The notes under the pieces: generated by a model
The model's input: the letters and a program-made list of their open reading frames with translations, nothing else
The model's database searches: none
Told to the model about the DNA's origin: nothing
Translations under genes and position numbers: made by a program
Source of the DNA: an uncultured bacterium
Lineage (GTDB): Bacteria; Bacillota_I; Bacilli_A; RFN20; CAG-826
Assembly: GCA_949291375.1 (NCBI GenBank)
Contig: CASEVI010000004.1
Span: 39,495-103,494 of the forward strand
Direction of reading: 5' to 3'
Length of the DNA: 64,000 nt
In this document: piece after piece, positions 40,790 through 54,139 of the stretch
How the letters are laid out: each line of letters starts with the position of its first letter
How positions within the stretch are numbered: position 1 is the stretch's first letter

Positions 40790-41127
40790 TTTTCCTCCTA
40801 CCATTTAAGTTAATAATAAAATAAAAAAATCCTTAGAAAATTTAAATTTTCTAAGGACGAATTACCGCGTTACCACCTTAGTTATTAATATAAATTTATT
40901 ATTAATAAAATTATATTAATCACTTAATTTATAGTTGTAGTTATAATTATTTTTTTAAAAAAATAATAAAGAATATAAAAGTGATATTTTTAAGGTTTAA
41001 TTGATATCTTTTCACCAAACTATATCTCGCTAATAATTAAATAATCTCAAAAACGTGTCTTTTACCTCTAAAAATATATAATAAATTAATAAAAAAGTCC
41101 ATAAAAATCGGATAAATGTTCAGCTTT
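40790..41127 (-). promoter_or_regulatory. T-box riboswitch leader of ileS.
   Basis: The minus strand reads ...CTAAGGTGGTAACGCGGTAATTCGTCCTTAGAAAATTTAAATTTTCTAAGGATTTTTTT. The T-box-like sequence AGGTGGTAACGCGG overlaps the 5' half of a terminator hairpin (40830-40857) that is followed by a U7 tract. Upstream lie AGAG and an AUCA element, a candidate Ile specifier. A -10-like TATAAT sits near 41135-41140. Confidence 0.65.
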
Positions 41128-41489
41128 TTTAATTATTATATATATTTTTTCATTGAATAAAATATTAATAAATATTTGCTATGAAAACCAGAATAAACAT
41201 TAAAAAATAATTCAAAAGTTTTTTTGTTAATCTTTATAACTATTAATAAAATTATAGAAAGAATTATTCAATTTATGAAATTATTTTTATTAAGAGTGAC
41301 AAAAAATAGTTTATCTATATTAATTTTAAAAACAGTTAAAAAATTTAACTTAAAAGTGAATATTTTTCTATATTAGAAGCATTCTTGTATGTTATACGGG
41401 TTGGGTGATCCTTTTTATATAAGAATCCCATTCTTATTTTATATATATGTATAAATAAGTTATTAGTTATATAAGATATATTAGTAATT

Positions 41490-41546
41490 ATTAAAATAAA
41501 AAGAAAAAATGCTTTAGCGTTTATTTTTTAATAAACCTAAAGCATT
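41490..41546 (-). terminator. Strong rho-independent terminator on the minus strand inside the non-coding gap.
   Basis: A ~17-bp stem with one bulge (AATGCTTTAGCGTTTATT-tttt-AATAAAC-CTAAAGCATT). On the minus strand it is followed by UUUUCUUUUUUAUUUU. Confidence 0.6.
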
Positions 41547-41829
41547 TAATATAAGAAATAATAACTTTTATATTTATTAATACATCACTTAAATTTAAAT
41601 TAGCAAACATAATAATATCTAACTCTTCTTTTTTCTACCTTTCAAAATATTTATATAAATCAATAACAACAATTCTTTATTTATTTAAACCTTCGTTAGT
41701 ATAAAGAAAAGATTTTATAAATAAAGAAAAAGATGAAAAAGAAACATTTATTACATTATTATTTTCATAAGCTATTTAAATAAAATATACGACAATTATC
41801 ACTGATTTAAAACTTCTATGAAAATAAAA

Positions 41830-41843
41830 TGAAAGTGCTTTCA
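41830..41843. promoter_or_regulatory. cre-like palindrome TGAAAGTGCTTTCA (TG instead of CG at the centre).
   Basis: The site fits TGWAANCGNTNWCA at all but the central C. A near-copy lies at 42365-42378, sharing a ~25-nt context AATGAAAGTGCTTwCAcA..TTATTTTTA. Confidence 0.35.
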
Positions 41844-41865
41844 CAATTTTTATTTAATTTCTTTA

Positions 41866-41902
41866 TCTTAAAGAAAAACGCTTTGAAAATATAATTCAAA
41901 GC
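41866..41902 (-). terminator. Rho-independent terminator on the minus strand downstream of the small ORF.
   Basis: A perfect 8-bp stem GCTTTGAA-aatataa-TTCAAAGC, followed on the minus strand by GUUUUUCUUU. Confidence 0.55.
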
Positions 41903-42017
41903 ATCTTCTTTAAGGAGAAATTAAATAATTTTTACATTACTTTATATAATAAAATTAGAAATTCTAATTTTATTAACGGATATTAAAACATTTATTAAGT
42001 ATATTTTTTAAGATTAA

Positions 42018-42167
42018 TTAGAAATCTCTTTCAACTTTAATAAAACCAGCAGAAGGAACATAATTTCCTAAAGCACTATAGAAATTACCAACGCCGACTA
42101 TTTCTACTTCTTTTTCGTTGTTATTTTCTTCTTCTCTATAATTGTATTCATATTTATCATTAAACAT
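42018..42167 (-). CDS. Small ORF of 49 aa with an acidic N-terminal half and a Gly/aromatic C-terminal half. The track does not list it. Sequence: MFNDKYEYNYREEENNNEKEVEIVGVGNFYSALGNYVPSAGFIKVERDF.
   Basis: An AGGAGG Shine-Dalgarno sequence lies 8 nt upstream of the ATG, and a perfect 8-bp hairpin sits in the 5' UTR at 42198-42222. A cre site lies upstream and a terminator 117 nt downstream. The ORF sits in an otherwise non-coding gap. Confidence 0.5.
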   Translation of the reverse strand: MFNDKYEYNYREEENNNEKEVEIVGVGNFYSALGNYVPSAGFIKVERDF

Positions 42168-42285
42168 AATTTTACGCCTCCTTTAAATATATAAGGTTTT
42201 ATCTTCAACTTCTTTGATTGAAGATGACATTATTGTAAATGATTTTTTTAAAATTAAATAATTTTTGAGCAAAAATTAAAAAAAA

Positions 42286-42299
42286 TGAAAACGTTTTCA
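42286..42299. promoter_or_regulatory. Perfect, perfectly palindromic cre site TGAAAACGTTTTCA, a CcpA-type catabolite-responsive element.
   Basis: It matches the cre consensus TGWAANCGNTNWCA at every position. It lies between the SGNH-operon terminator and the small ORF, about 120 nt upstream of that ORF's start. Confidence 0.55.
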
Positions 42300-42313: not shown

Positions 42314-42346
42314 TTAAAAAAGCCGATAATAATCGACTTTTTTTAA
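42314..42346. terminator. Bidirectional rho-independent terminator downstream of the SGNH esterase gene.
   Basis: The hairpin AGCCGAT-aata-ATCGACT is flanked by an A run and a T7 run. On the minus strand it reads AGUCGAUUAUUAUCGGCU followed by U6. Confidence 0.6.
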
Positions 42347-42364: not shown

Positions 42365-42378
42365 TGAAAGTGCTTACA
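42365..42378. promoter_or_regulatory. cre-like palindrome TGAAAGTGCTTACA between the SGNH gene stop and its terminator.
   Basis: One central mismatch to the cre consensus. It is the repeat copy of the 41830 motif. Confidence 0.3.
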
Positions 42379-42393
42379 GTTATTTTTAAAAAT

Positions 42394-43182
42394 TTATTTA
42401 TAATTATTATTAACTAATCCAGTACCAATAAATGGAATCTTTCTAAAGTCATCAGGATATTTCCTTATAATATAATCAATATAATTGCCAAAAGCTAACG
42501 CTAAAGAATAATAACCTAAAGGATTTGGATGAAATCCCATAGCAATTTTATTTCTAGCCTCTTCATCATATAGAAAAAGATATTCTGTAAAATCAATCAA
42601 ATAAGTATAAGTAAAAAGTTTGACAACTTTTTTCATCTCTTCTCTAACTTCTCTTACTACTTTTGTTCTTTCTGGAGACAAATTGTCAATCTGGAGTGAT
42701 GTTAAAAAAATTCTCGAATCAGGTTCAATTAATTTTAATTTAGATATTACTTTTCCAAGATAACCAAAATAAGTGTCATTGTTTTTTGAAGAATCTTTTA
42801 TATTTATATCATCAATTGACCCAACCTTTTGATTATATACAAACAAATCATTATTACCTAAAAAAATAATATAGGCTTGTTCTTTTTTCCAAAAATTATT
42901 TTTATCAGCCCAAGTTTCATAAAACTCTTTGAATGTCATTCCACCGCGAGAAAAATTATCATATTTAGTTCCTGTAATTCTTTCAAGAATAGAAGGCCAG
43001 GAATATTCGTACATATCGTGATAAGTTATTTCACCTTTATCATTTGTTGATTCAAACTCACCACTGCTCAAAGAATCACCTATAACACCTATTTTTTTAA
43101 AAATAGAAGCGAATCCACAATTATCTTTAATTATATCAAGTGGTTTTTCTCCTTCTTGAAGTTCAAATATTTTTTTCATCAT
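42394..43182 (-). CDS. Cytoplasmic GDSL/SGNH-family esterase/lipase.
   Basis: GDSL motif VIGDSLSSG near the N-terminus, a GNND block and a C-terminal GFHPN (the DxxH region). There is no signal peptide. The start overlaps the upstream lipoprotein gene stop, which suggests translational coupling. Confidence 0.7.
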   Translation of the reverse strand: MMKKIFELQEGEKPLDIIKDNCGFASIFKKIGVIGDSLSSGEFESTNDKGEITYHDMYEYSWPSILERITGTKYDNFSRGGMTFKEFYETWADKNNFWKKEQAYIIFLGNNDLFVYNQKVGSIDDINIKDSSKNNDTYFGYLGKVISKLKLIEPDSRIFLTSLQIDNLSPERTKVVREVREEMKKVVKLFTYTYLIDFTEYLFLYDEEARNKIAMGFHPNPLGYYSLALAFGNYIDYIIRKYPDDFRKIPFIGTGLVNNNYK

Positions 43183-43901
43183 ATTGATGTCCTCTTATCT
43201 AATTCAATGTTATATTCGATTTTAATAGTATTTAATATTTTATCTTTTGTTTCAATTATTGTGCCATCATAATAATAATCTTTCAACATACCTTCCTTAG
43301 TTACAGTATAATCTGTATTAAAAATAGCGCCTTCATAAGTCATATCATTAATTAGTTGATATCTTAAAAGGCCGTCTTCACTAATAGAAAAATTTATATG
43401 CCATTTTTCAGCACTTATTTTTATTAAATCACCGTAATATAATCCGCCACGGTAATAATCATATGTTTTATCTTTATAAAAAAATGACGTGATAGAATCG
43501 TTAATTTTAGTTTTATCGACAGTTAAATCTTTTCGAACTCCATCAGTGATTTCACAACCATATGTTTTACTTTCGTCAATGTATTTAAGAACTTCTTTTT
43601 CTTTAACATCATCTTCTTGAACCAAGCTTCCTTCATATGTTCTATATAAATATAAATAAGGTAATTTTTCATTACTTCTATCAAATTCAAAATAGCAATA
43701 AGCTTTGCCAATTTCTTCTCCACTAGAGTTATATTCATAATTATAATATTCTAAAGAAGCTGTAAATATATTATCTAAGGCTTTATTAATTGAAAAACCT
43801 TCAATATAATCTCTTATCGGTCCTTCAGGAATCTTAGAATTACATGAACATAGTGTGAAAATTGAAATTAATAATAAAATTTTTAAATATCTCTTTTTCA
43901 T
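43179..43901 (-). CDS. Hypothetical lipoprotein of 240 aa, Tyr-rich.
   Basis: Lipoprotein signal MKKRYLKILLLISIFTLCSC with lipobox LCSC. Confidence 0.6.
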   Translation of the reverse strand: MKKRYLKILLLISIFTLCSCNSKIPEGPIRDYIEGFSINKALDNIFTASLEYYNYEYNSSGEEIGKAYCYFEFDRSNEKLPYLYLYRTYEGSLVQEDDVKEKEVLKYIDESKTYGCEITDGVRKDLTVDKTKINDSITSFFYKDKTYDYYRGGLYYGDLIKISAEKWHINFSISEDGLLRYQLINDMTYEGAIFNTDYTVTKEGMLKDYYYDGTIIETKDKILNTIKIEYNIELDKRTSI

Positions 43902-43902
43902 A

Positions 43903-43941
43903 ATTTTTTTAAAAATAATAAGGTTGGTTTATACCAACCTT
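43903..43941 (-). terminator. Hairpin with a U-tract between the two lipoprotein genes; a terminator or attenuator.
   Basis: A perfect 8-bp stem AAGGTTGG-tttata-CCAACCTT, followed on the minus strand by AUUAUUUUUAAAAAA. It ends only about 2 nt before the downstream gene's start codon. Confidence 0.45.
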
Positions 43942-43963
43942 ATTATAATACAATATTTACAAT

Positions 43964-44524
43964 TTAATTATATGAATAAGTACAATATCCATAAACTGAA
44001 TTTAAATAACTATCTGTTTGAGCATTTACAGATTCAAAGTTTTCTTTTATCAAATAGCCATTCGAATCATAAGTCAAATCTAAATTCCATTTAGCTGTAA
44101 TTTCCATTCCGAATCGTCTTATGATTAATCTTTTATTAATTGAGAATGTTTTAAAAGATAAACCATTTTCACTCGTTGAATAGCAATATACAGTATCAAT
44201 AGAGTCGGTAGTTGTAAATTTAGAAATAATCGAATTATATTGATCTTCTAAATTTTCACTATTTAACTTTAAAGGCAATCCTAAATAAAATGAAGTTTCT
44301 TCTGAATCAAATGTCTTATCTGTTCCGCTAGCAGCATATTCATCCCCAGTTAAGCCCTTACAATTAAATTCTCCTACGTAAGAATAGGTTTTGTAATCAA
44401 TATCTTTAAATGTTGAAGCAATATTTTCTATTTCTTCGTAAGATAAATAACCTTTAGGGGCGCCACATGCTGTCAAAACCATTGCTAATGAGCCCAAGAC
44501 TAACATTTTAAATTTATTTTTCAT
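43964..44524 (-). CDS. Hypothetical lipoprotein of 186 aa.
   Basis: Lipoprotein signal MKNKFKMLVLGSLAMVLTACG with lipobox LTAC. Confidence 0.6.
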   Translation of the reverse strand: MKNKFKMLVLGSLAMVLTACGAPKGYLSYEEIENIASTFKDIDYKTYSYVGEFNCKGLTGDEYAASGTDKTFDSEETSFYLGLPLKLNSENLEDQYNSIISKFTTTDSIDTVYCYSTSENGLSFKTFSINKRLIIRRFGMEITAKWNLDLTYDSNGYLIKENFESVNAQTDSYLNSVYGYCTYSYN

Positions 44525-44547
44525 GTTAACTTCTCCTTAACTCATTA

Positions 44548-47094
44548 TTAATAAATTCTTAAATTCATTGATTTCTCAGTAATATGTGTATCGATTAAAT
44601 CAAATGATAGGTGAATTTTTGTTCCGACTTGAATTTCTTCATTGTGTAAAACATAGAATTCATGAACACTTCCATCTTCTTCTGTTATATTGCAAATCAC
44701 AAACTTCTGATCTCCATAATTTAAGAAAGACGTGACAGTAGCTTCTATACCTTCATCTGAAACATAAATTTTATCATTAGGAATTTCGACTAAAAAATCT
44801 TTAACGAATACTTTTGTACCGAGACCTTGAATCATTTTATTAGAGATTAATTCTGGTGATTTATATAAATATCCATTAATTTTAAGGAAGAAAATTTGTC
44901 TAGCTTTACTTAAATTATTCTTTTTGTTTTGTTCTAATTTTTGTAATTCATTTTTTCTCTCTTTTTCCAAAACACTAAGGACATTATATTCATCTCTAAG
45001 TTTTTTAACAGCTTCCTTATAATTATTCTTTAGTATCTTCTTTTCTCTTTTATAAGGTGCTTTAATTTCATTTAAAGCAGATTCGTAATTTAAAGTTTCG
45101 CCATCAAGAGCCTTATTTATTAAATTTTCTCTTTCTTTTGGATAATTTTCTTTAAATTCTTCGTGTTCAGATTTTCTCTTATGATAAACATCCTTATCTT
45201 TGTTTGTTTTCAAGAATTTTTTATAAGAATCATATTCTTCTTTTTTAATTCTTTCTTGTTCTTCCTTAACTTTAGCGACAACAGATTTTTTATTAATTTT
45301 ATGTTGTTTTTTAACTTCAATAATATCATGTTTATACTTAGCATCTAATTCTTTTATTTTTTCTTTTGTAGAAATAGTTAATTCTTTAATTTTTGCTTCA
45401 TTAGTTAATTTAATAGCAGATAAGTCTTTAGATGAATTTTCTTCAATTAATTTATCATATTTTAAATTAATTTCATTAAGTCTATCTTTATAATCAGAAT
45501 TAACTTTTTCAATATTAGCATTCAAAATAGGTGTATATTTATTTTTTTCATTGCTATTAGCAGTGACAAAATTAATAAATGTCGCAGAAATTTCATTGAA
45601 TTGTTTTAAAGTAGAAACCAAGACATCGTCTCCATTTTTGATTGTAATTCGAGTAATGTCCACTAAAAGTTTTACATCATCACCAACCTTAATATTTTCA
45701 TTTTTGAGTGTTAGGAATAAAACTCTTTCGTTTAATTTTAGATAAACAACTTTAGTTCCTTCAACATCTTCAATATTTATAACATGTGCTTTTAAGTTTC
45801 CTTTTTCAGAAATAGACAAAGCATCACAAGGTATATAAAGTTGTCCATTTCCATCTTTTGTTTCAACTACTTTTGGCAACTCTAATGAATTTCCATCAAA
45901 CAAAACTGTATGTTCATGAATCGAACAAGAAATAACATTTAGTGAAGGAATACGTGGAACAATAGAAACTTCACTATCATAATCAAAGAAATGAGCTTTT
46001 TTAATATTAACACCAACTTTGACAATGTCTCCAGGTTTTAAACCATTAGAATTTAAAGCTTTAATAATAATTCGGGTTGATGATTCTTTAAACCCATCTC
46101 CATTCATATTAATATCGCCATAAACTAATGTTTCATTTCCTAATTCTTCAAAATGAGAAATTTTAACATTGAATAAATCTTTTGGATTAGAATTGGTAGT
46201 ATCTAAAGTTAAATCTTCACACCTAACACCAAACCAAACCTTATGTTTCCCATCAAAGTAATGAGGTTGAACTTTGATTAAATCATTTGCGTCAACATAT
46301 AATTTATTATCTGAATAATCTAAATCTACTTCAACAGTATCGCCATTTCTTAAAAGTGTTGCTTCAAAAAAATTCATTTGAGGTGTTCCAATAAATCCGG
46401 CAACAAATTTATTTTGAGGGTAATTATAAAGATTTTTTGGTGAATCTATTTGTTGAATTTCGCCTAATTTCATAACAACTACCCTGGTACCAAGTGTCAT
46501 AGCTTCAACTTGATCATGAGTAACATAAATAAATGTAGTTTTTAAATCTTGATGAAGTTTAGCAATTTCACTTCTCATTTGAGCTCTTAATTTAGCATCC
46601 AAGTTACTTAAAGGCTCGTCTAAAAGCATTACTTTTGGATTTCTTAAAATAGCTCTTCCTAAAGCAACTCTTTGTCTTTGTCCACCAGACATAGCCCTTG
46701 GCTTTCTATCTAAATAATCAGTTAATCCTAAAATATTTGCTGCCCATAAAACTCTTTCATGAATTTCTTCGGTTGGAACATGTCTTAATTGCAAACCAAA
46801 AGCCATATTTTCGTAAACAGTCATATGTGGATAAAGAGCATAGTTTTGAAAGACCATAGCTATATCTCTATCTTTTGGTTCGACATCGTTAACAATTTTA
46901 TCATCAATATATAATTCGCCAGCACTAATATCTTCAAGTCCAGCAATCATTCTTAAAGTTGTAGATTTTCCACAACCAGATGGGCCGACAAATACAATAA
47001 ATTCTTTGTCTTTAATATCCATTGTGAAATCTGATACGGCTTTAACACCGTTTGGGTAAACTTTATAGATGTGATCTAATTTAATGTTTGCCAT
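44548..47094 (-). CDS. msmK: Sugar ABC transporter ATP-binding protein of the MalK/MsmK family, with an unusual ~480-aa C-terminal extension. The extension holds extra TOBE-like beta domains and a Lys/Glu-rich coiled coil.
   Basis: Walker A GPSGCGKST, Q-loop, signature LSGGQRQR, Walker B MLLDEP and H-loop are present, followed by a MalK-type regulatory domain to about aa 375. The ORF then continues in frame to 848 aa. Confidence 0.8.
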   Translation of the reverse strand: MANIKLDHIYKVYPNGVKAVSDFTMDIKDKEFIVFVGPSGCGKSTTLRMIAGLEDISAGELYIDDKIVNDVEPKDRDIAMVFQNYALYPHMTVYENMAFGLQLRHVPTEEIHERVLWAANILGLTDYLDRKPRAMSGGQRQRVALGRAILRNPKVMLLDEPLSNLDAKLRAQMRSEIAKLHQDLKTTFIYVTHDQVEAMTLGTRVVVMKLGEIQQIDSPKNLYNYPQNKFVAGFIGTPQMNFFEATLLRNGDTVEVDLDYSDNKLYVDANDLIKVQPHYFDGKHKVWFGVRCEDLTLDTTNSNPKDLFNVKISHFEELGNETLVYGDINMNGDGFKESSTRIIIKALNSNGLKPGDIVKVGVNIKKAHFFDYDSEVSIVPRIPSLNVISCSIHEHTVLFDGNSLELPKVVETKDGNGQLYIPCDALSISEKGNLKAHVINIEDVEGTKVVYLKLNERVLFLTLKNENIKVGDDVKLLVDITRITIKNGDDVLVSTLKQFNEISATFINFVTANSNEKNKYTPILNANIEKVNSDYKDRLNEINLKYDKLIEENSSKDLSAIKLTNEAKIKELTISTKEKIKELDAKYKHDIIEVKKQHKINKKSVVAKVKEEQERIKKEEYDSYKKFLKTNKDKDVYHKRKSEHEEFKENYPKERENLINKALDGETLNYESALNEIKAPYKREKKILKNNYKEAVKKLRDEYNVLSVLEKERKNELQKLEQNKKNNLSKARQIFFLKINGYLYKSPELISNKMIQGLGTKVFVKDFLVEIPNDKIYVSDEGIEATVTSFLNYGDQKFVICNITEEDGSVHEFYVLHNEEIQVGTKIHLSFDLIDTHITEKSMNLRIY

Positions 47095-47117
47095 TTTTAA
47101 ATTCCTCCATTAAGTTT

Positions 47118-48728
47118 TTATTTAAATATCGCTATAGAATAAGGTGGTAAAATTATCGAACCATCTTTTAATTCACCGATAAATTTTACATTGTCAACAA
47201 CCAGTTGACCAACAACTTTTTTGTTGTTTATATCGCTCGTCGTAAGAATAATATTATCATTTTCTTTAAAATTTATAGCGATATCAATTTTTTCGTTAAG
47301 ATAATCTTTAGAAATTATCAATAATCCTTTATCTTTATCAGCAGTTAATAAAGATAATTTGCCTCTAGAAATTTCAGGAAATTTATTTCTTAAATAATTT
47401 GCTTTCTTATAATAATTCAAAATAGAATTTTCGTTTTCTAAATTCTCTTTAACAGTTCCATAAGGATAATCAACTGTAGTAACACCGCTTAATTGTACTG
47501 TGTCGTATTTTCCATCTTCTCCCCATTTAACCGATGTTCTAACGTTTTGATCCGGAGGATTATTACCTGACATTCCAACTTCATCTCCGTAATATGTAAA
47601 TGTAGTTCCATTAGTAATTGATAATAAACCAAAATAGAATTTTGTTTTTTCTGGAGAAGTTACTCTAACATATCTAGACATATCATGGTTATCAATGAAT
47701 GGTGCTGGAATCCCTTTATCAGAAGTTTTATTAATTTTTTCTAATCCTTCATAGAATGATTCTACCATCCTACCATCCATATTTGTTGAATTAATATATA
47801 AGCCATCAGGATATGCAGTTGAAGCAGGAAAGTAGAAGAAAGAATCGATGCCTGATTCATAATATCGTTGAATAATTTCAGCAGAACTCCAAGCCTCTCC
47901 AACAATATATGCTTTTGGATTTAAAGATTTTACATAATTATTAATCCATTTTAATGTTTCAATATTCTTTTCTGTATTATTAATAAAATAATACAAAACA
48001 GCATCTAATCTAAATCCATCAACCCCGAGATCAAGATAATATTTCATAATCTTTTCGAAATCTTCTCGAACGTATTCTGAATCTAAATTAAATTCAGGCA
48101 TCTCACTAGAAAAATTACCTTCATAATAAAAATTGTAATAAGGATTTTTATATAAAGTTTTTCCACGAGAATTAGGATCTTCTTTATTCTCAAAAAACGA
48201 ATAATAATCAACGTATCTTTTTTCGTTTTCATTTAACTCTTTATTATTAATAAATTTATTATAAGCATCACTTGCTAATTTAAATTCCTTTGTAAATAAA
48301 GAAGAATGATTAATTACAAGATCTAAAATAACCTTAATATTTTTTTCATGTGCTTTGTTAATAAGATTTTTTAAGTCATCAATATCACCATAAGATTTGT
48401 CGATTTCATAATAGTTTGAAACGTCATACTTGTGATAAGAAGGCGATGTGTTAATTGGCATCAGCCAAATCCCTGAGTATCCTAAATCAGATAAATAATC
48501 TAACTTTTCGGTAACGCCATTCAAATCACCAATCCCATCGCCATTAGAATCAGCGAATGAGCGAACAAAGATTTCATAATAATTTCTATAATTATCATCT
48601 ACGGGAATAACTTCTTCTGCTGTTTCGTCAATTTTATAGCCATATGTCTCATCATAAAATCTTTTTTGACCACATGAAGCAAAAAGTACTGGTAAAACAA
48701 GGAAAATTAATAATCTCTTTTTTATCAT
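47118..48728 (-). CDS. Extracellular GH13 alpha-amylase-family lipoprotein (amylase, pullulanase or maltodextrinase type).
   Basis: Lipobox LFASC. GH13 motifs GVDGFRLDAV, GEAW and FIDNHD are present. The 536-aa length fits. Confidence 0.8.
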   Translation of the reverse strand: MIKKRLLIFLVLPVLFASCGQKRFYDETYGYKIDETAEEVIPVDDNYRNYYEIFVRSFADSNGDGIGDLNGVTEKLDYLSDLGYSGIWLMPINTSPSYHKYDVSNYYEIDKSYGDIDDLKNLINKAHEKNIKVILDLVINHSSLFTKEFKLASDAYNKFINNKELNENEKRYVDYYSFFENKEDPNSRGKTLYKNPYYNFYYEGNFSSEMPEFNLDSEYVREDFEKIMKYYLDLGVDGFRLDAVLYYFINNTEKNIETLKWINNYVKSLNPKAYIVGEAWSSAEIIQRYYESGIDSFFYFPASTAYPDGLYINSTNMDGRMVESFYEGLEKINKTSDKGIPAPFIDNHDMSRYVRVTSPEKTKFYFGLLSITNGTTFTYYGDEVGMSGNNPPDQNVRTSVKWGEDGKYDTVQLSGVTTVDYPYGTVKENLENENSILNYYKKANYLRNKFPEISRGKLSLLTADKDKGLLIISKDYLNEKIDIAINFKENDNIILTTSDINNKKVVGQLVVDNVKFIGELKDGSIILPPYSIAIFK

Positions 48729-48733
48729 TTTTA

Positions 48734-49594
48734 TTAGCCTTTAACAGCTCCTCCTGTTACACCTTCAACATAATATCTTTGTAACCAGAAGAATAAAGCC
48801 ATAATACCTATGGAAACAAAAACACCACCGGCACAAAATTGAGGAAAATATTGAATGTCTCTTCCTTTAGACAACATTTGTTGTAAACCAACAGCAACAT
48901 TAAACAATTCTTGCTTACCTTGCGCAAGATAAGATGCCATCATATAATCTCCCCATGGAGCAGTAAAACTCATCAATATTGTATAAACAACAATAGGTTT
49001 AGATAATGGCAAAATAACTTTCCAGAAAACAGTGTTTTTATTTGCACCATCAATCATTGCAGCTTCATCTAATGAACGTGGTATAGTATCAAAAAAGCCC
49101 TTTGCAACATAATATCCCATTCCTGCGCCAGCACAATAAACAACGACCAAACCATAAATTGTACCTGATAGGCCAATCATTTGAAGCAAGAAATATGTAA
49201 CAATCATTCCTAAAAATGAAGGGAACATACCAATAACAAGAATAAGTTTCATAAAAGCTTGTCTTGCTCTAAATCTTAATCTTGAAAATGCATAAGCAGT
49301 CATTAATGTAATTATTGTCTGAAGAACAGCTGTTATAATCGCGATAATTAAAGTATTTAAATACCATGTACCGAAAGGATATATTTCATCAGTGAATAAA
49401 TTTATATAATTTTTAAATGTCCAAACTTCAGGGACAACATTCAACGGATCATAACTTTCCGAAAAAGATTGTAAGACTAGATAAACAAAAGGAACAAGCC
49501 AAACAATTGAAAGAACAACCAAAATTATATAAACTAAAGTCTTAGATGTTATATCTTTAATTTTCTTACTGTGATAACGTTCTAATTTAGCCAT
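48734..49594 (-). CDS. malG: Maltodextrin ABC transporter permease, MalG-like.
   Basis: Six TM helices and the EAA motif (LDEAAMIDGANKNTVFWKVILPLSKP). Confidence 0.8.
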   Translation of the reverse strand: MAKLERYHSKKIKDITSKTLVYIILVVLSIVWLVPFVYLVLQSFSESYDPLNVVPEVWTFKNYINLFTDEIYPFGTWYLNTLIIAIITAVLQTIITLMTAYAFSRLRFRARQAFMKLILVIGMFPSFLGMIVTYFLLQMIGLSGTIYGLVVVYCAGAGMGYYVAKGFFDTIPRSLDEAAMIDGANKNTVFWKVILPLSKPIVVYTILMSFTAPWGDYMMASYLAQGKQELFNVAVGLQQMLSKGRDIQYFPQFCAGGVFVSIGIMALFFWLQRYYVEGVTGGAVKG

Positions 49595-51135
49595 TATTGG
49601 AAATCCTCCTCGTTTTTTACAGAATTGCTCTTTCCATAGAATATTAAGGAGAAGAAAGCAACAACAACGAACACTACCATACCAATAACTGATGCTGTAC
49701 CGTAATCTTTAAATACTTCACCCATTGACATTTTGTAAAGCCATGTAATTAAAAGGTCAGATTGTCCGGCTCCAAACACTTGCGCAGTAATCATTTCTCC
49801 GTTAACACTTGAGAAAACAGGTCCACCATTAGATAAAAGATAAATAACATTAAAATTATTAATGTTACCAACAAATTGAGAAATCAAATATGGTGTAGTA
49901 ACAAATAACATATATGGTAATGTTATTTTCATATACATTTTATAAGGACTAGCACCATCAATTTTAGCAGATTCATATAAATCATCTGGAATGTTCATTA
50001 AGATGCCAGTACACATTAACATAGTATATGGTATACCAACCCACATATTAACCAAAATAATAGTAATCTTAACTAAAATACCATCACTTAAAAAACGAAT
50101 ATTTTGAGTAATTAAGCCTAATTCTCTAAGCACTGCATTAACAACGCCAGTATCAGTGTTGAGCATTTTTGACATTAAAAGTAAAGAAACAAATTGTGGA
50201 ACAGCAATGGTTGTAATTAGAATTGTTCTCCATAATTTTTTTAATTTAATGCCTTTTTTATTAATCATAATCGCAACAATCATCCCTAAGAAATAATTAG
50301 TAAATGTTGCAAAAAATGCCCAAATTAATGTCCAAATTAAAATTTGAACGAAAACTAAAGCGAATTGAGTTCCGTTTTGTCCACCGGCTACGCCTAATAA
50401 TTGTTGAAAATTACCTAAGCCAACCCAATCAAATAATTCTTTAGGATTCATATGATTTGAATTGTAATTTGTAAAACCGATTAGAACCATAAAAAATAAA
50501 GGAATAATAGTAAAAATTGCAATTCCTAGTGTAGGGATTGAAAGCATCACTTTATGATAATCTTTACCGACTAAACCATTTAAAGTTTCTTTATCAGATT
50601 TGTGCTTACCAATATATTTTAATTGTTGTAATTCATAAGAATCTCTAATACTTGTATACCAAAGAAATGCTAAAATTAAAATAACAATAATGGAAATGAC
50701 AGAATAAAGCAAAATTTTAAAACTATCATCTTGATACATATATCCAATAAATGGAGCTTCATCAGTTTCATATTGAACAGATGAAACATAACCAAATGTT
50801 GGTAGTTTTGTAAAGTTTGGTACACCAATTAAAACTATAAATATAACAGCAACAATTTCATAAAAAAGATTTAATAATCCTCTTAAAATTTGATGACGCG
50901 TAATTTGTCCTATTCCCATAACTAAAAAATTTAATCTAGTTAATAAATCACCATGAGCAAACCAATGGAACAAATTTATAATCGGATTAAAAATTTTTTT
51001 AAAAAATTCTTTTGTTTTTGAAGGAGTTTTTCTTAAAAAATTCCAAATTCCTATTGGGATACTTTTAAAAAAGTCACCAATCTTATAAAAAAATTTTTCA
51101 GGTTTTGTCAATGAATAATATTCTAAATTCGACAT
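49594..51135 (-). CDS. malF: Maltodextrin ABC transporter permease, MalF-like, with an N-terminal extension.
   Basis: EAA motif YESAKIDGASPYKMYMKITLPYM and multiple TM helices. I prefer the ATG at 51135 (MSNLEYY...), which has a GGAGG Shine-Dalgarno sequence 7 nt upstream. The track start is 51165. Confidence 0.75.
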   Translation of the reverse strand: MSNLEYYSLTKPEKFFYKIGDFFKSIPIGIWNFLRKTPSKTKEFFKKIFNPIINLFHWFAHGDLLTRLNFLVMGIGQITRHQILRGLLNLFYEIVAVIFIVLIGVPNFTKLPTFGYVSSVQYETDEAPFIGYMYQDDSFKILLYSVISIIVILILAFLWYTSIRDSYELQQLKYIGKHKSDKETLNGLVGKDYHKVMLSIPTLGIAIFTIIPLFFMVLIGFTNYNSNHMNPKELFDWVGLGNFQQLLGVAGGQNGTQFALVFVQILIWTLIWAFFATFTNYFLGMIVAIMINKKGIKLKKLWRTILITTIAVPQFVSLLLMSKMLNTDTGVVNAVLRELGLITQNIRFLSDGILVKITIILVNMWVGIPYTMLMCTGILMNIPDDLYESAKIDGASPYKMYMKITLPYMLFVTTPYLISQFVGNINNFNVIYLLSNGGPVFSSVNGEMITAQVFGAGQSDLLITWLYKMSMGEVFKDYGTASVIGMVVFVVVAFFSLIFYGKSNSVKNEEDFQ

Positions 51136-51195
51136 AAAAACCTCCAAAACAAACAAACTACACAAAAAGTGTAGTTTGTCGTTGTTTAATAATTA

Positions 51196-52488
51196 TTATG
51201 AGTTAATAACAGTTTCGTTATAAGTATCAACGGCAGCTTGTAAATTATCAAGTGTAATTGTACCTTCTTTCATACCATTGACTAAAACACCTGGAGCATT
51301 CCATACGTTTCCTGGAACAACTGTTTGAACGTGACACCATTCGCTTTGTTCCGTTAATGTTTGGAAGTTTGCATCATTTTTAATTTTATCTAACTCAGCA
51401 ACCTCAGTATTTGATGGACAAATATTGTATTCATCAAATCTCTTTTCTTGTGCTTCTGGTCCAGAAAGATATTGAGCTAATTCGAATGCAGCTGTCATTC
51501 TATCTGTATCGTTAGCACTTCTAATTGGGTTAACGCCATAAAGTTTAGCACCATTAAAGCAACCTAAATGAGCTGTATCTCCGTCAACTGTAACTGTTGG
51601 CATTGGTGCACATGCATAATTATCACCAAGTTGTGCTTTTGCAGCAGCAATATCCCAAGTTCCGTTAACAGCAATTTTAACATTTCCAGTTCCTGCTAAA
51701 ACATATTCATCAACCCATGTACCTTCACTTTGATGTTGAACAATGTTGTAAATAGCTTTAGCAGCTTTTAATCCTGCTTCACCATTAAAGTCAGCAGTAA
51801 TTTTATCAACTTGGTTATCTTCAGTAAATGTTACATTATAGTCTGCACCAAATGTAAACATAGCACCTTGTCCATAGAAACCTTCTTGTAATTTATATGC
51901 AAATTGAGTATTTGTTTCGGCACATTTTGCAAGAATTCCTTCAACAGAAGCAACGTCTTCCTCTGTAAAGACAGATTTATCATACATTAAATAATAGGTA
52001 TTATCTGCAGTATATGGGAATGCATATAAAGTGTCATTGAAAGTAGCACTATCAAGACCGACTTGATTAGTATTTTCTTCAACATAAGTTTTATAAGTAC
52101 TTCTTAATGCAGCTAAAGCACCTTTAGCAACTAAGCCTTGTGTTTTATCAGCACCAAAAGCATAAACATCTGGTCCTGTTGCCCAGTCAGTAATTTCAGA
52201 GTCGACTTTATCTTCTCCGTGAGCAACTTGTTCAATAACATAAGTATTTGGATCGCCGAGTGATTTTCTATATTCTTTGAAATCTTCGATTAATTCGGCA
52301 TCAAATTCAGCTTTATCAGCTGGACCAGAAAGAACAAGGTTAATTGTTTTTCCTTGAGGAGTTTCACCACCTGGGTTATCTGTTCCCCCCCCTGGGTTAT
52401 CTGTGTTTCCTTTGTCACCACAAGCAACTAAGCCTGCGAGTGAAATGCCTAAAACGGCAATAACACCAAATAATTTTGTTTTTTTCAT
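51196..52488 (-). CDS. malE: Maltodextrin-binding lipoprotein (MalE-like substrate-binding protein) with an N-terminal Gly/Pro-rich tandem-repeat linker.
   Basis: Lipobox LVACG. A family-1 sugar-binding fold. The 7-aa repeat TDNPGG(G) occurs twice, encoded by a 21-nt direct repeat plus a G8 run. Confidence 0.75.
   Translation of the reverse strand: MKKTKLFGVIAVLGISLAGLVACGDKGNTDNPGGGTDNPGGETPQGKTINLVLSGPADKAEFDAELIEDFKEYRKSLGDPNTYVIEQVAHGEDKVDSEITDWATGPDVYAFGADKTQGLVAKGALAALRSTYKTYVEENTNQVGLDSATFNDTLYAFPYTADNTYYLMYDKSVFTEEDVASVEGILAKCAETNTQFAYKLQEGFYGQGAMFTFGADYNVTFTEDNQVDKITADFNGEAGLKAAKAIYNIVQHQSEGTWVDEYVLAGTGNVKIAVNGTWDIAAAKAQLGDNYACAPMPTVTVDGDTAHLGCFNGAKLYGVNPIRSANDTDRMTAAFELAQYLSGPEAQEKRFDEYNICPSNTEVAELDKIKNDANFQTLTEQSEWCHVQTVVPGNVWNAPGVLVNGMKEGTITLDNLQAAVDTYNETVINS
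52370..52404. repeat. Tandem 21-nt repeat (cctgggttatctgt...) with an embedded C8/G8 homopolymer at 52385-52392, inside the malE linker region.
   Basis: Seen directly in the sequence. I found no other G/C run of 8 or more in the window by eye. Confidence 0.6.
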
Positions 52489-52586
52489 ATTATTTTTATT
52501 CCTCCTTAAATATGAATGTAAAAATTATTTTTTAAGTAATTTTATATATTATTAACTCTGTTACGAGCTTAATAACCTAAAATAAA

Positions 52587-54101
52587 TTAATCACCTCTTT
52601 GATAATTATCGTTCCATCTTAATAACATAGATGAAACTTCTTCTTTATTTTTTTCAAAGAGTTTTTTACTAATTCTCCAAGACCAATTTGAAGAACCGAG
52701 TGTTGAAGGGAAATTCATTCTTCCTTCTGCTCCAATTGCAAATAAATCTTGAAGAGGTAATATAGCAGCTTTTGTAGATGAAGCAATATTAAGTTCACAA
52801 ACCTTTAATGTTAATTCTTTATTAGATAAATCTTTAACAAAAGGAATTCTGAATCTCTTACATTCATCTTCCAATATTTCTAAAAACATTTTCTTTTCAT
52901 CTTTAGTTAAATCATCGATAAATTGACGACACGTTTTAGAATCATGAGTTCCGCTATATGAGAAGAAATTGTAAGTATAATTTGATGGCCTCCAAATATT
53001 TGTTTTATCTGGATTATCGAAACATTGAGTTACAATTTTCATTCCTGGATAACCACATTTATTAAAGAATTCAATAAAATCATCGTCTATCATTCCTAAA
53101 TCTTCAGCAACAATTGGATAATCTAATTTATCTTTAAATAAATCAAATCCAGGTCCTTTTACCCATCTTCCATTTTTAGCTGTTGTATCTTTAAATGGAA
53201 TTGAGTAATACCCACTAAATCCTCTAAAGTGATCAATTCTTAAATAATCAAAGAACTTTAATGCGTTATTTATTCTTTCATTCCACCATTTATAATTAGT
53301 TTCTTTATGATATTTCCAATTATATAAAGGATTGCCCCATAATTGACCATCAACTGAGAAACAATCTGGTGGACAACCAGCAACATTAACTGGATAGTGG
53401 TTGATATCTAATTCAAATAGTGAAGGATATTTCCGAACTTCTAATGAATCAAATGCAACATAAATTGGCAAATCGCCCATAATTTTTATCTTATTTTTAT
53501 GAGCATATTCTTTTAATGAATTATATTCATTTAAGAATTCATATTGGGTCCAAATATAAAATAGAATATCATCTTTATTATTTTGAATTAATTCTTTTTC
53601 TAATTCTAATGAGTATGTTTTATATTTGTTATCCCATTCATACCATGGTTTTAAATGATTAATATCTTTTAAAACCATGAATATAGCAAAATCTTTAAAT
53701 TGAGGATTGTTTTTAATAAATTCTTTAAACTCAAGACTAGTTTTATCAAATCTATTAAATGCTTTTCTTAATACTTTTAATCTATTATTGAAAAGTATTC
53801 CGTAATCAACTCTTTCTTCATTATTACCCCAATCAATTGAATTTACTTCTTCTTTTGTTAATAACTTTTTATTAATTAATGTATCTAAATCAATAAAATA
53901 ATAATTTAAACCATAATTTGAAGGAGATTGATAAGGTGAATCTCCAAATGAAGTTACATTAAGTGGTAAGATTTGCCAAATATTGCAATTAGATTTTTTT
54001 AAAAAATCAATAAATTCATAAGCTTCCTTCCCTAAACTCCCAATGCCATATTTTGAAGGGAGGGAAGAAATATGTAATAAAATTCCACTTTCTCTTTCTT
54101 T
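52587..54101 (-). CDS. malQ: 4-alpha-glucanotransferase (amylomaltase, GH77), paralog 1. The track start at 54140 would overlap the cre site; I prefer the ATG at 54101.
   Basis: N-terminus ESGILLHISSLPSKYGIGSLGKEAY... is characteristic of GH77. The protein is about 45% identical to the adjacent paralog. Confidence 0.8.
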   Translation of the reverse strand, partial: KERESGILLHISSLPSKYGIGSLGKEAYEFIDFLKKSNCNIWQILPLNVTSFGDSPYQSPSNYGLNYYFIDLDTLINKKLLTKEEVNSIDWGNNEERVDYGILFNNRLKVLRKAFNRFDKTSLEFKEFIKNNPQFKDFAIFMVLKDINHLKPWYEWDNKYKTYSLELEKELIQNNKDDILFYIWTQYEFLNEYNSLKEYAHKNKIKIMGDLPIYVAFDSLEVRKYPSLFELDINHYPVNVAGCPPDCFSVDGQLWGNPLYNWKYHKETNYKWWNERINNALKFFDYLRIDHFRGFSGYYSIPFKDTTAKNGRWVKGPGFDLFKDKLDYPIVAEDLGMIDDDFIEFFNKCGYPGMKIVTQCFDNPDKTNIWRPSNYTYNFFSYSGTHDSKTCRQFIDDLTKDEKKMFLEILEDECKRFRIPFVKDLSNKELTLKVCELNIASSTKAAILPLQDLFAIGAEGRMNFPSTLGSSNWSWRISKKLFEKNKEEVSSMLLRWNDNYQRGD

Positions 54102-54125: not shown

Positions 54126-54139
54126 TGTAAGCGCTTTCA
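54126..54139. promoter_or_regulatory. Perfect cre site TGAAAGCGCTTACA at the start/5' UTR of malQ paralog 1.
   Basis: It matches TGWAANCGNTNWCA at all positions and overlaps the longest-ORF start codon of a maltodextrin gene. This is the classic position for CcpA repression. Confidence 0.6.

Follow-up and report, generated by a model that had tools for sequence, protein, structure and literature searches.

A small conserved gene with a conserved 3' RNA element beside a maltodextrin locus of an uncultured member of the Bacilli: a candidate catabolite-controlled dual-function transcript

A 64,000-nucleotide stretch of contig CASEVI010000004.1 from an uncultured bacterium (hereafter the window) carries, on its minus strand, a 49-codon open reading frame (ORF). 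Comparison with relatives makes it highly probable that this ORF is a real protein-coding gene under purifying selection, with translation predicted, and very probable that the 115 nt at the 3' end of its predicted transcript form a real conserved RNA element, constrained separately at the RNA level. A catabolite-response (cre) box upstream, a putative CcpA site, is probably functional. The explanation that we favour for the whole locus, tentatively and at slightly less than an even chance, is a small-protein mRNA under catabolite control that also serves as a regulatory RNA. An earlier reading of this DNA (the original prediction) had proposed an unannotated small gene with its own cre, 5' hairpin, Shine-Dalgarno (SD) sequence and terminator. 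All these parts are present and conserved across relatives; the feature it overlooked, the 115-nt 3' part of the transcript, is the most conserved of the locus.

Results

Evidence for a protein-coding gene

Strand reading and ORF listing both returned the predicted ORF on the minus strand with the expected product, MFNDKYEYNYREEENNNEKEVEIVGVGNFYSALGNYVPSAGFIKVERDF, which includes the peptide EVEIVGVGNFYSALGNYVPSAGFIK. Protein, DNA and synteny searches recovered it in six lineages, namely the window and the relatives L001, L012, L020, L025 and L026, which are all uncultured, AT-rich Bacilli of gut type, and in all six it stands directly after the maltodextrin gene cluster. The orthologues are 49, 49, 49, 48, 50 and 52 amino acids (aa) long and 90, 84, 81, about 65 and 39% identical to the window product. 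The original prediction had proposed conservation, Ka/Ks and the tolerance of frameshifts as checks, and all spoke for the gene: the six lineages keep the reading frame, selection at the codon level is purifying, and every indel among the relatives is in frame.

Among the four close lineages, the ratio of non-synonymous to synonymous substitution rates (dN/dS) was 0.09-0.31 in frame, versus 0.45-1.4 in the two shifted frames; against L026 it was 0.23-0.33. Variable columns at codon positions 1, 2 and 3 numbered 6, 8 and 22 in the same four lineages (15% of ORF columns at positions 1 and 2, 47% at position 3), and the sole length change among them was one in-frame codon. In the comparison with L025 synonymous sites were saturated, yet the pattern E-[IL]-VGV-x2-F-x4-G-x2-[IV]-PS-x2-FIK was retained. 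When the substitutions between the window and L001 were placed at random, as many were synonymous in 100 of 20,000 trials (p = 0.005). Proportions of synonymous (pS 0.34) and non-synonymous (pN 0.04) differences in the small ORF were similar to those of ileS in the same genome pair (pS 0.28, pN 0.03). Across the four close lineages, no synonymous change fell in codons 1-15 or in the final 9 codons.

The small ORF persists in the window despite the deletion of the downstream genes for a 523-aa protein, ldh and an acetyltransferase, and in L001 and L020, where the upstream GDSL gene is absent; in L025 and L026, genes other than those three follow it. Because the flanking genes differ between lineages while the ORF stays, the gene is retained for its own sake.

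From 5.8 billion protein clusters and 1.84 billion representatives, only orthologues were recovered. An exhaustive HMMER search returned, besides the orthologue P0002, the repeat proteins P0003 and P0004, which we set aside as composition or repeat artefacts. Direct inspection found neither the ORF nor the 3' motif in the more distant relatives L030 and L031. Scans with the peptide pattern gave no match in the genome contig collection or the JGI metagenomes, and a DNA scan of the JGI metagenomes with the 3' motif gave none either. By these searches, the small-protein family is new, orphan and narrowly distributed.

A conserved RNA element at the 3' end

Between the stop codon and the 3' element lies a linker in which 61% of columns vary among the four close lineages, with indels. 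The element itself begins with AATATCCG (41984) and comprises two stem-loops (SL1 and SL2), a single-stranded CU-rich stretch, AAUUUCUCCUUAAAG, which resembles an anti-SD sequence and contains the motif UUUCUCCUU, and an intrinsic terminator. In the last 113-115 nt, 10.6% of columns vary, compared with 47% at third codon positions (Fisher p = 1e-6). The p-distance of the element is 0.06-0.07 between the window and L001 or L012, and 1.7% between L001 and L012; synonymous divergence of ileS in the same pairs is 0.27-0.28 and 18%, and the 115-nt element evolves 4-10 times slower than these synonymous sites. Its predicted fold is more stable than that of shuffled sequence (folding z-score -5.05), and its variable sites all lie in loops. 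Rfam held no match for it, whether queried with the window region or with two relatives.

The terminator, which the original prediction had located about 117 nt downstream, was found about 116 nt after the stop codon. L025 and L026 have hairpins of other sequence followed by a T-run in its position, and L026 keeps the SL2-plus-CU core, UAAUGUAAAAAUUAUUAAAUUUCUCCAUUAAAGAAG, next to its different terminator stem.

The cre boxes and the predicted promoter

The perfectly palindromic cre of the original prediction was confirmed. A cre is a 14-16 bp pseudo-palindrome, TGWAANCGNTNWCA or WTGNNARCGNWWWCAW, with G2, C7 and G8 (PMC3463425), and the box upstream of the small ORF fits both of these published consensus forms (PMC3463425). 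The 64 kb hold two consensus sites, against 0.09 expected. Five of the six lineages keep the box, with changes only at degenerate (N/W) positions (A>C in L001, T>A in L026); in the four close lineages 13 of its 14 positions never vary, and 62% of the columns do so in the spacer between cre and -10 box. The malQ/binding-protein operon, too, has a canonical cre at its head, with the same sequence in L021, L023, L025, L026 and the distant L031. It is conserved in every examined relative that has this part of the locus; because the conservation reaches even a distant relative, cre boxes appear to be under selection in the clade. Activation of transcription is the general rule, though not without exceptions, when a cre is placed upstream of the -35 region (ackA, pta, ilvB; PMC3463425). 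The cre of the small gene lies near -68 relative to the predicted start, in a position that usually gives activation, and may act in this direction.

Further upstream, the cre-like box A matches the high-affinity cre consensus except for an A at G8. It reads TG[TA]AAGCACTTTCA in all six lineages, whatever gene stands upstream, and 13 of its 14 positions do not vary among the four close ones; the DNA between box A and cre has 45% variable columns there. With one mismatch allowed, box A has three matches in the window and 0.08 expected. A third cre-like box begins the insert that is specific to the window lineage; the sequence around it weakly repeats the box A region (71% over 99 nt to L026). 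In both flanking boxes A replaces the G8 that is strongly conserved in canonical CcpA cre boxes, and either CcpA or another LacI-type protein may bind them. A hairpin with flanking A- and T-runs is likely the terminator of the upstream operon: its stem is kept in the four close lineages and differs in sequence in L026, and its substitutions yield G-U wobbles only in the minus-strand RNA.

A -10 box with no clear -35 was inferred from the alignment. The aligned hexamer reads TACAAT, TAAAAT, TAAGAT or TAATAT in the six lineages, always 5-7 nt before the 5' hairpin. The 8-bp stem of that hairpin, ATCTTCAA-N9-TTGAAGAT, had been predicted correctly, with its position at 42201-42225 instead of 42198-42222. 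At the same place L025 has TTCAAAAC/GTTTTGAA and L026 has TGTCTTTAA/TTAAAGACA, with varying loop length. Since these stems differ in sequence, what the predicted 5' end keeps is structure rather than sequence. The SD sequence AGGAGG is likewise where it had been placed, at a spacing of 9 nt, not 8, from the ATG; it is not unique, as the minus strand of the window has ten copies of AGGAGG, among them those in front of ileS and of the sugar-binding protein gene. In five lineages the SD is preceded, at a distance of 10-12 nt, by a conserved CCUU(AU) (42193-42196 in the window, minus strand), which pairs with part of it when the 5' untranslated region alone is folded; the ribosome-binding site (RBS) may be partly masked by this pairing.

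A candidate target in trans

We used RNAduplex to pair the CU-rich region with positions -35 to +20 of all window ORFs that reach 100 aa. Among these 47, the RBS of the maltodextrin-binding protein gene paired best (-18.6 kcal/mol). The same RBS came first of 16-18 in L001, L021 and L023 (-21.6 kcal/mol) and in L026 (-16.0 kcal/mol), where motif and RBS partner have both changed, and was thus top-ranked in five of the five lineages that have the 3' motif. With CUCC kept and the flanks shuffled, the pairing gave p = 0.006 for the window and p = 0.001 for the L001 type. Action of the 3' element in trans on this mRNA is a lead only, and a rather doubtful one.

Two other pairings were rejected. 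The RBS of a 186-aa lipoprotein gene was the second-best target in the window (-18.4 kcal/mol), and this pairing is lost elsewhere (-6 to -11 kcal/mol). Between the 3' CUCCUU and the SD of the same transcript, changes on either side are left uncompensated, which speaks against an extended pairing.

The leader of the solute-binding protein gene (52489-52600, minus strand) is near-invariant in the six lineages, while the protein falls to 59-66% identity. It contains a 27-bp palindrome, possibly an operator.

Properties of the product

The product is acidic and hydrophilic (pI 4.4, grand average of hydropathy -0.84) and has no hydrophobic segment. Its N-terminal half is acidic and varies between lineages, and conservation extends over all of the C-terminal 29 residues. 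Given five sequences, AlphaFold left residues 1-20 disordered and modelled a two-stranded beta-hairpin from residues 21-32 and 35-46 (pLDDT 86-92); with three sequences it produced only a weak model. Searches of Pfam, NCBIfam and PDB sequences with the peptide and with profiles gave no significant family or sequence match; the TPR-like and Rex-like motif matches seen there were insignificant, at chance level. Foldseek against the PDB returned only generic hairpin matches (E > 1). Because the product would be an isolated long hairpin with an acidic tail, we propose a partner-binding role for it.

Genomic context

The window has a G+C content of 26%, and the nearest named relatives of its proteins are metagenome-assembled genomes labelled Bacilli, Anaeroplasmataceae or Erysipelotrichales. 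As the original prediction had it, the ORF adjoins a sugar locus: the maltodextrin cluster lies upstream on the same strand and encodes two 4-alpha-glucanotransferases, a solute-binding protein, two permeases, a GH13 enzyme, an 848-aa MalK-type ATPase, two lipoproteins and a GDSL hydrolase. The MalK-type ATPase has a Lys/Glu-rich C-terminal extension of about 470 residues, which is kept in the six lineages and L030 (847-851 aa) and absent in L031 (374 aa). A comparison of window positions 42394-52488 with L001 and L012/L021 gave uneven relatedness. For ileS and malQ, the window is 92-94% identical to both L001 and L012; for the transporter genes it is 67-76% identical to L001 versus 80-89% to L012, and for the small-ORF block 87% versus 79%. 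Because relatedness is thus a mosaic across genes, recombination within the locus is suggested.

The 1.3-kb gap around the ORF had been described as otherwise non-coding. It does lack intact protein genes, but it holds a T-box, a gene remnant, a second conserved element and an insert (Table 1). The ileS T-box leader scored below the Rfam gathering score and is full length and rightly placed. The remnant belongs to the acetyltransferase gene: the window lineage deleted the 523-aa gene (of unknown family), ldh and most of the acetyltransferase gene, which relatives carry between the small ORF and ileS. The second conserved non-coding element follows a TATAAT-like box and has a hairpin, ATAAGAAT-GGG-ATTCTTAT, then ...GGATCACCCAACCC... 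and ...AAGAATGCTTCT...AAAATATTCAC. In relatives it stands upstream of the 523-aa gene, and the window keeps it though the gene is gone. It had no Rfam match, and its RNAalifold consensus fold was unconvincing. In L020 the 523-aa gene (L020:1-1068, minus strand) has about 45 codons out of frame and five stops between its in-frame parts, and may be a pseudogene or reflect an assembly error.

Table 1. Positions of the small gene, its predicted signals and neighbouring features in the window.
Feature	Position	Strand	Sequence or remark
Small-protein gene	42018-42167	-	49 aa, ATG start
SD sequence	42177-42182	-	AGGAGG; GGAGG kept in six of six lineages
5' stem-loop	42201-42225	-	ATCTTCAA/TTGAAGAT, 9-nt loop; predicted transcript 5' end
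Predicted -10 box	42232-42237	-	TACAAT
Canonical cre box	42286-42299	-	TGAAAACGTTTTCA; centred about 68 bp upstream of predicted transcription start
Hairpin, likely upstream-operon terminator	42316-42343	-	AAAAAAGTCGAT-TATT-ATCGGCTTTTTT
Cre-like box A	42365-42378	-	TGTAAGCACTTTCA
Variable linker	41985-42017	-	stop codon to 3' element
Conserved 3' RNA element	41870-41984	-	SL1, SL2, single-stranded stretch, terminator
SL1	41947-41975	-	13-bp stem
SL2	41923-41943	-	7-bp stem
CU-rich stretch	41908-41922	-	AAUUUCUCCUUAAAG
Intrinsic terminator	41870-41902	-	stem GCTTTGAA/TTCAAAGC at 41880-41902, tail GTTTTTCTTT to 41870
Candidate trans target	52488-52519	-	RBS region of maltodextrin-binding protein gene (51196-52488)
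Palindrome in binding-protein leader	52549-52575		TTATTAAGCTC-GTAACA-GAGTTAATAA
Canonical cre, malQ/binding-protein operon	54126-54139		TGAAAGCGCTTACA
MalK-type ATPase gene	44548-47094	-	
Window-lineage-specific insert	41475-41869	-	395 bp; strong bidirectional hairpin 41507-41547 at its end
Third cre-like box	41830-41843		TGAAAGCACTTTCA
Second conserved non-coding element	41352-41474	-	about 120 nt; also L001:10311-10430, L020 about 1205-1300
Remnant of maltose O-acetyltransferase gene	41033-41119	-	last 29 codons; 79% identity, versus L012:10577-14057
ileS T-box leader	40850-41070	-	35.7 bits, E = 1.7e-5
T-box terminator	40829-40858	-	

Discussion

If the mRNA of the small protein is catabolite-controlled and also serves as a regulatory RNA, the locus would be a self-contained transcription unit of about 355 nt, running roughly from 42225 to 41870 on the minus strand. 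CcpA with HPr-Ser-P would bind the cre near -68, upstream of the -35 region, and transcription would track the availability of preferred sugars. The 5'-terminal hairpin would stabilise the transcript, which would serve both as an mRNA and, through its CU-rich 3' region, as an RNA that base-pairs over the RBS of the adjacent maltodextrin-binding-protein mRNA. Maltodextrin uptake would thereby be tuned post-transcriptionally, in addition to the cre already controlling that operon. The peptide would most likely bind a larger protein, plausibly of the same pathway, as SgrT does with PtsG.

Several observations count against this explanation. L025 keeps the ORF with a plain terminator and without the 3' element, and has TGAAAATTTTTTCA, which lacks the CG, in the place of the cre; because it has neither, the ORF can evidently function without them. 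The transcription start and the -10 box are predictions: a promoter scan found 25 promoter-like sites against 24.8 expected, that is, chance level, and the -10 box is therefore assigned from what the lineages have in common. No stem of the 3' element varies, and RNAalifold found no covariation in it; pairing of the 3' motif with the transcript's own SD shows no covariation either. Any CUCC motif pairs with any SD, and the target scan covered local genes only, 16-47 per genome. The L026 pairing was not above shuffled controls (p = 0.12), and L001, L021 and L023 are not independent, since motif and RBS are identical in all three. Conservation of the binding-protein leader has reasons of its own, and no relatives of the peptide were detected beyond its orthologues.

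The most serious alternative, which we regard as distinctly possible though short of probable, is an ordinary small-protein gene whose 3' region acts in cis only, as a terminator, a determinant of mRNA stability or localisation, or an anti-SD auto-regulator, with no target in trans. It accords with the strong coding evidence, with the ORF of L025 and its plain terminator, and with target statistics that are modest and drawn from lineages that are not independent; moreover, when the whole transcript is folded, the SD is paired with the 3' CUCCUU in both the minimum-free-energy and the centroid structure. Yet 115 nearly invariant nucleotides, unpaired ones included, evolving 4-10 times below the synonymous rate, exceed what a plain terminator needs, and the uncompensated changes in the flanks of SD and anti-SD in L012/L020 and L026 speak against extended intramolecular pairing. 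The opposite view, a non-coding regulatory RNA in which the ORF is incidental, would suit a locus whose most conserved part is non-coding and whose first 15 and last 9 codons lack synonymous change in the four close lineages. We consider it very unlikely in view of the 6/8/22 distribution over codon positions, a dN/dS of about 0.1-0.3 in frame only, the in-frame indels, the conserved GGAGG and ATG, and the peptide pattern that L025 retains at saturated dS. An equally slim prospect is a leader peptide whose downstream hairpins attenuate the 523-aa, ldh and acetyltransferase genes, which in L001, L012 and L020 do lie 410-430 nt beyond the ORF on its own strand. The module is intact, however, in the window, where these genes are deleted, and in L025 and L026, where others follow; conservation extends over the amino-acid sequence as a whole, and over the C-terminal half entirely, rather than being limited to a few regulatory codons; the terminator is 116 nt from the stop codon; and a promoter-like TATAAT and a separate conserved element intervene between the terminator and the 523-aa gene.

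The original prediction had likened the product to leader-plus-core signalling or bacteriocin-like peptides. An acidic, variable N-terminal half before a conserved C-terminal half would agree with the precursor of a secreted or modified peptide (bacteriocin, signalling peptide or ribosomally synthesised and post-translationally modified peptide, RiPP), as would the uncharacterised 523-aa gene adjoining the ORF in some lineages. The idea did not survive, and we give it very little weight: the product is hydrophilic, the 29 conserved residues are predicted to form a beta-hairpin, and the hydrophobic N-terminus, GG motif, Cys-rich core and conserved partner gene of secreted peptides, class II bacteriocins or RiPPs are all absent. 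The prediction itself had noted the lack of a signal peptide and a GG leader, rightly, and a membrane segment is absent as well. Its suggestion to look for linked processing or export genes led to none, as no transporter, protease or modification gene is conserved beside the ORF in the six contexts; the only neighbouring candidate, the 523-aa gene, is dispensable and does not occur in the window, L025 or L026. A type I toxin, which would be a small hydrophobic membrane peptide paired with an overlapping antisense RNA, would not fit an acidic, hydrophilic product without a membrane segment. Least probable of all is a decayed fragment of a larger gene, for instance the Rossmann-fold start of a Rex-like regulator, to which a weak NCBIfam match over residues 16-37 (E = 0.09, 11.9 bits) and the nearby ldh of relatives could point. 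That match is insignificant and PDB Rex chains are not matched; a Tyr replaces the third Gly of GxGxxG, AlphaFold gives a beta-hairpin instead of a beta-alpha-beta unit, and start, stop and length are under purifying selection in six lineages.

A catabolite-controlled mRNA that doubles as a regulatory RNA would have known parallels. SgrS/SgrT is an enterobacterial dual-function RNA of the sugar-phosphate stress response (PMC12612679). As in that system, a short transcript would consist of an ORF of about 45 codons at the 5' side, a conserved base-pairing region and a terminator, with ORF and RNA region unequally conserved across relatives (PMC12612679), and the predicted pairing covers the RBS of a sugar-uptake gene. 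The two differ in that their sequences are unrelated and the present host is a Gram-positive-type, AT-rich member of the Bacilli, its locus known here from sequence alone. The predicted regulator is a cre box (CcpA) in place of SgrR, and the predicted target the binding protein of an ATP-binding cassette (ABC) transporter in place of a phosphotransferase system (PTS) permease. It is conceivable, though unlikely, that the locus is an independent Gram-positive counterpart of SgrS/SgrT, in which translation of the binding protein would be blocked by the 3' anti-SD domain and the peptide would also work on this uptake system, perhaps on the MalK-type ATPase, whose 470-residue tail is unusual. Such a counterpart would have arisen from unrelated parts in a reduced, AT-rich, Mollicutes-like lineage of Bacilli.

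Among Firmicutes, SR1 of Bacillus subtilis is a dual-function RNA that encodes the 39-aa SR1P (PMC3526287, PMC12612679). Catabolite control of SR1 transcription is exerted by CcpN and less strongly by CcpA, and the peptide shows more conservation than the part that base-pairs (PMC3526287, PMC12612679). SR1 would be a Firmicute precedent for the regulatory RNA predicted here, which would likewise encode a peptide and be under catabolite control. SR1, in contrast, is repressed under glycolytic conditions, whereas the cre described here lies upstream of the predicted promoter, a position more often activating (PMC3463425). The peptides are unrelated, SR1P being Cys-rich and the present product a predicted acidic beta-hairpin, and the targets differ: ahrC and kinA for SR1, a predicted sugar-binding protein gene here.

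Cre-linked small RNAs (sRNAs), such as RsaI of Staphylococcus aureus, offer another comparison. LLMGnc_147 of Lactococcus lactis is a cre-linked sRNA that affects a sugar-uptake operon (PMC4829306); with it the predicted transcript would share its small size, a cre in the promoter region and the link to a sugar-uptake operon (PMC4829306). LLMGnc_147 and RsaI, however, are non-coding, and their cre overlaps the promoter and leads to repression, whereas the present locus has a conserved ORF. Like SgrS/SgrT and SR1/SR1P, the cre-linked sRNAs are unrelated to it in sequence.

Small proteins and dual-function RNAs are systematically missed by annotation, above all in uncultured lineages. Here, one short predicted transcript would hold two separately selected units under a catabolite-response box, beside a sugar-uptake operon that it possibly regulates. 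Should action in trans prove not to be true, the locus would still provide a small-protein family, new and orphan, whose expression signal is clear, and the 115-nt RNA element would still require an explanation. If it is true, the transcript would add a post-transcriptional layer to the catabolite control of ABC-type sugar uptake in Firmicutes and would represent a second, independently evolved case of the SgrS/SgrT design.

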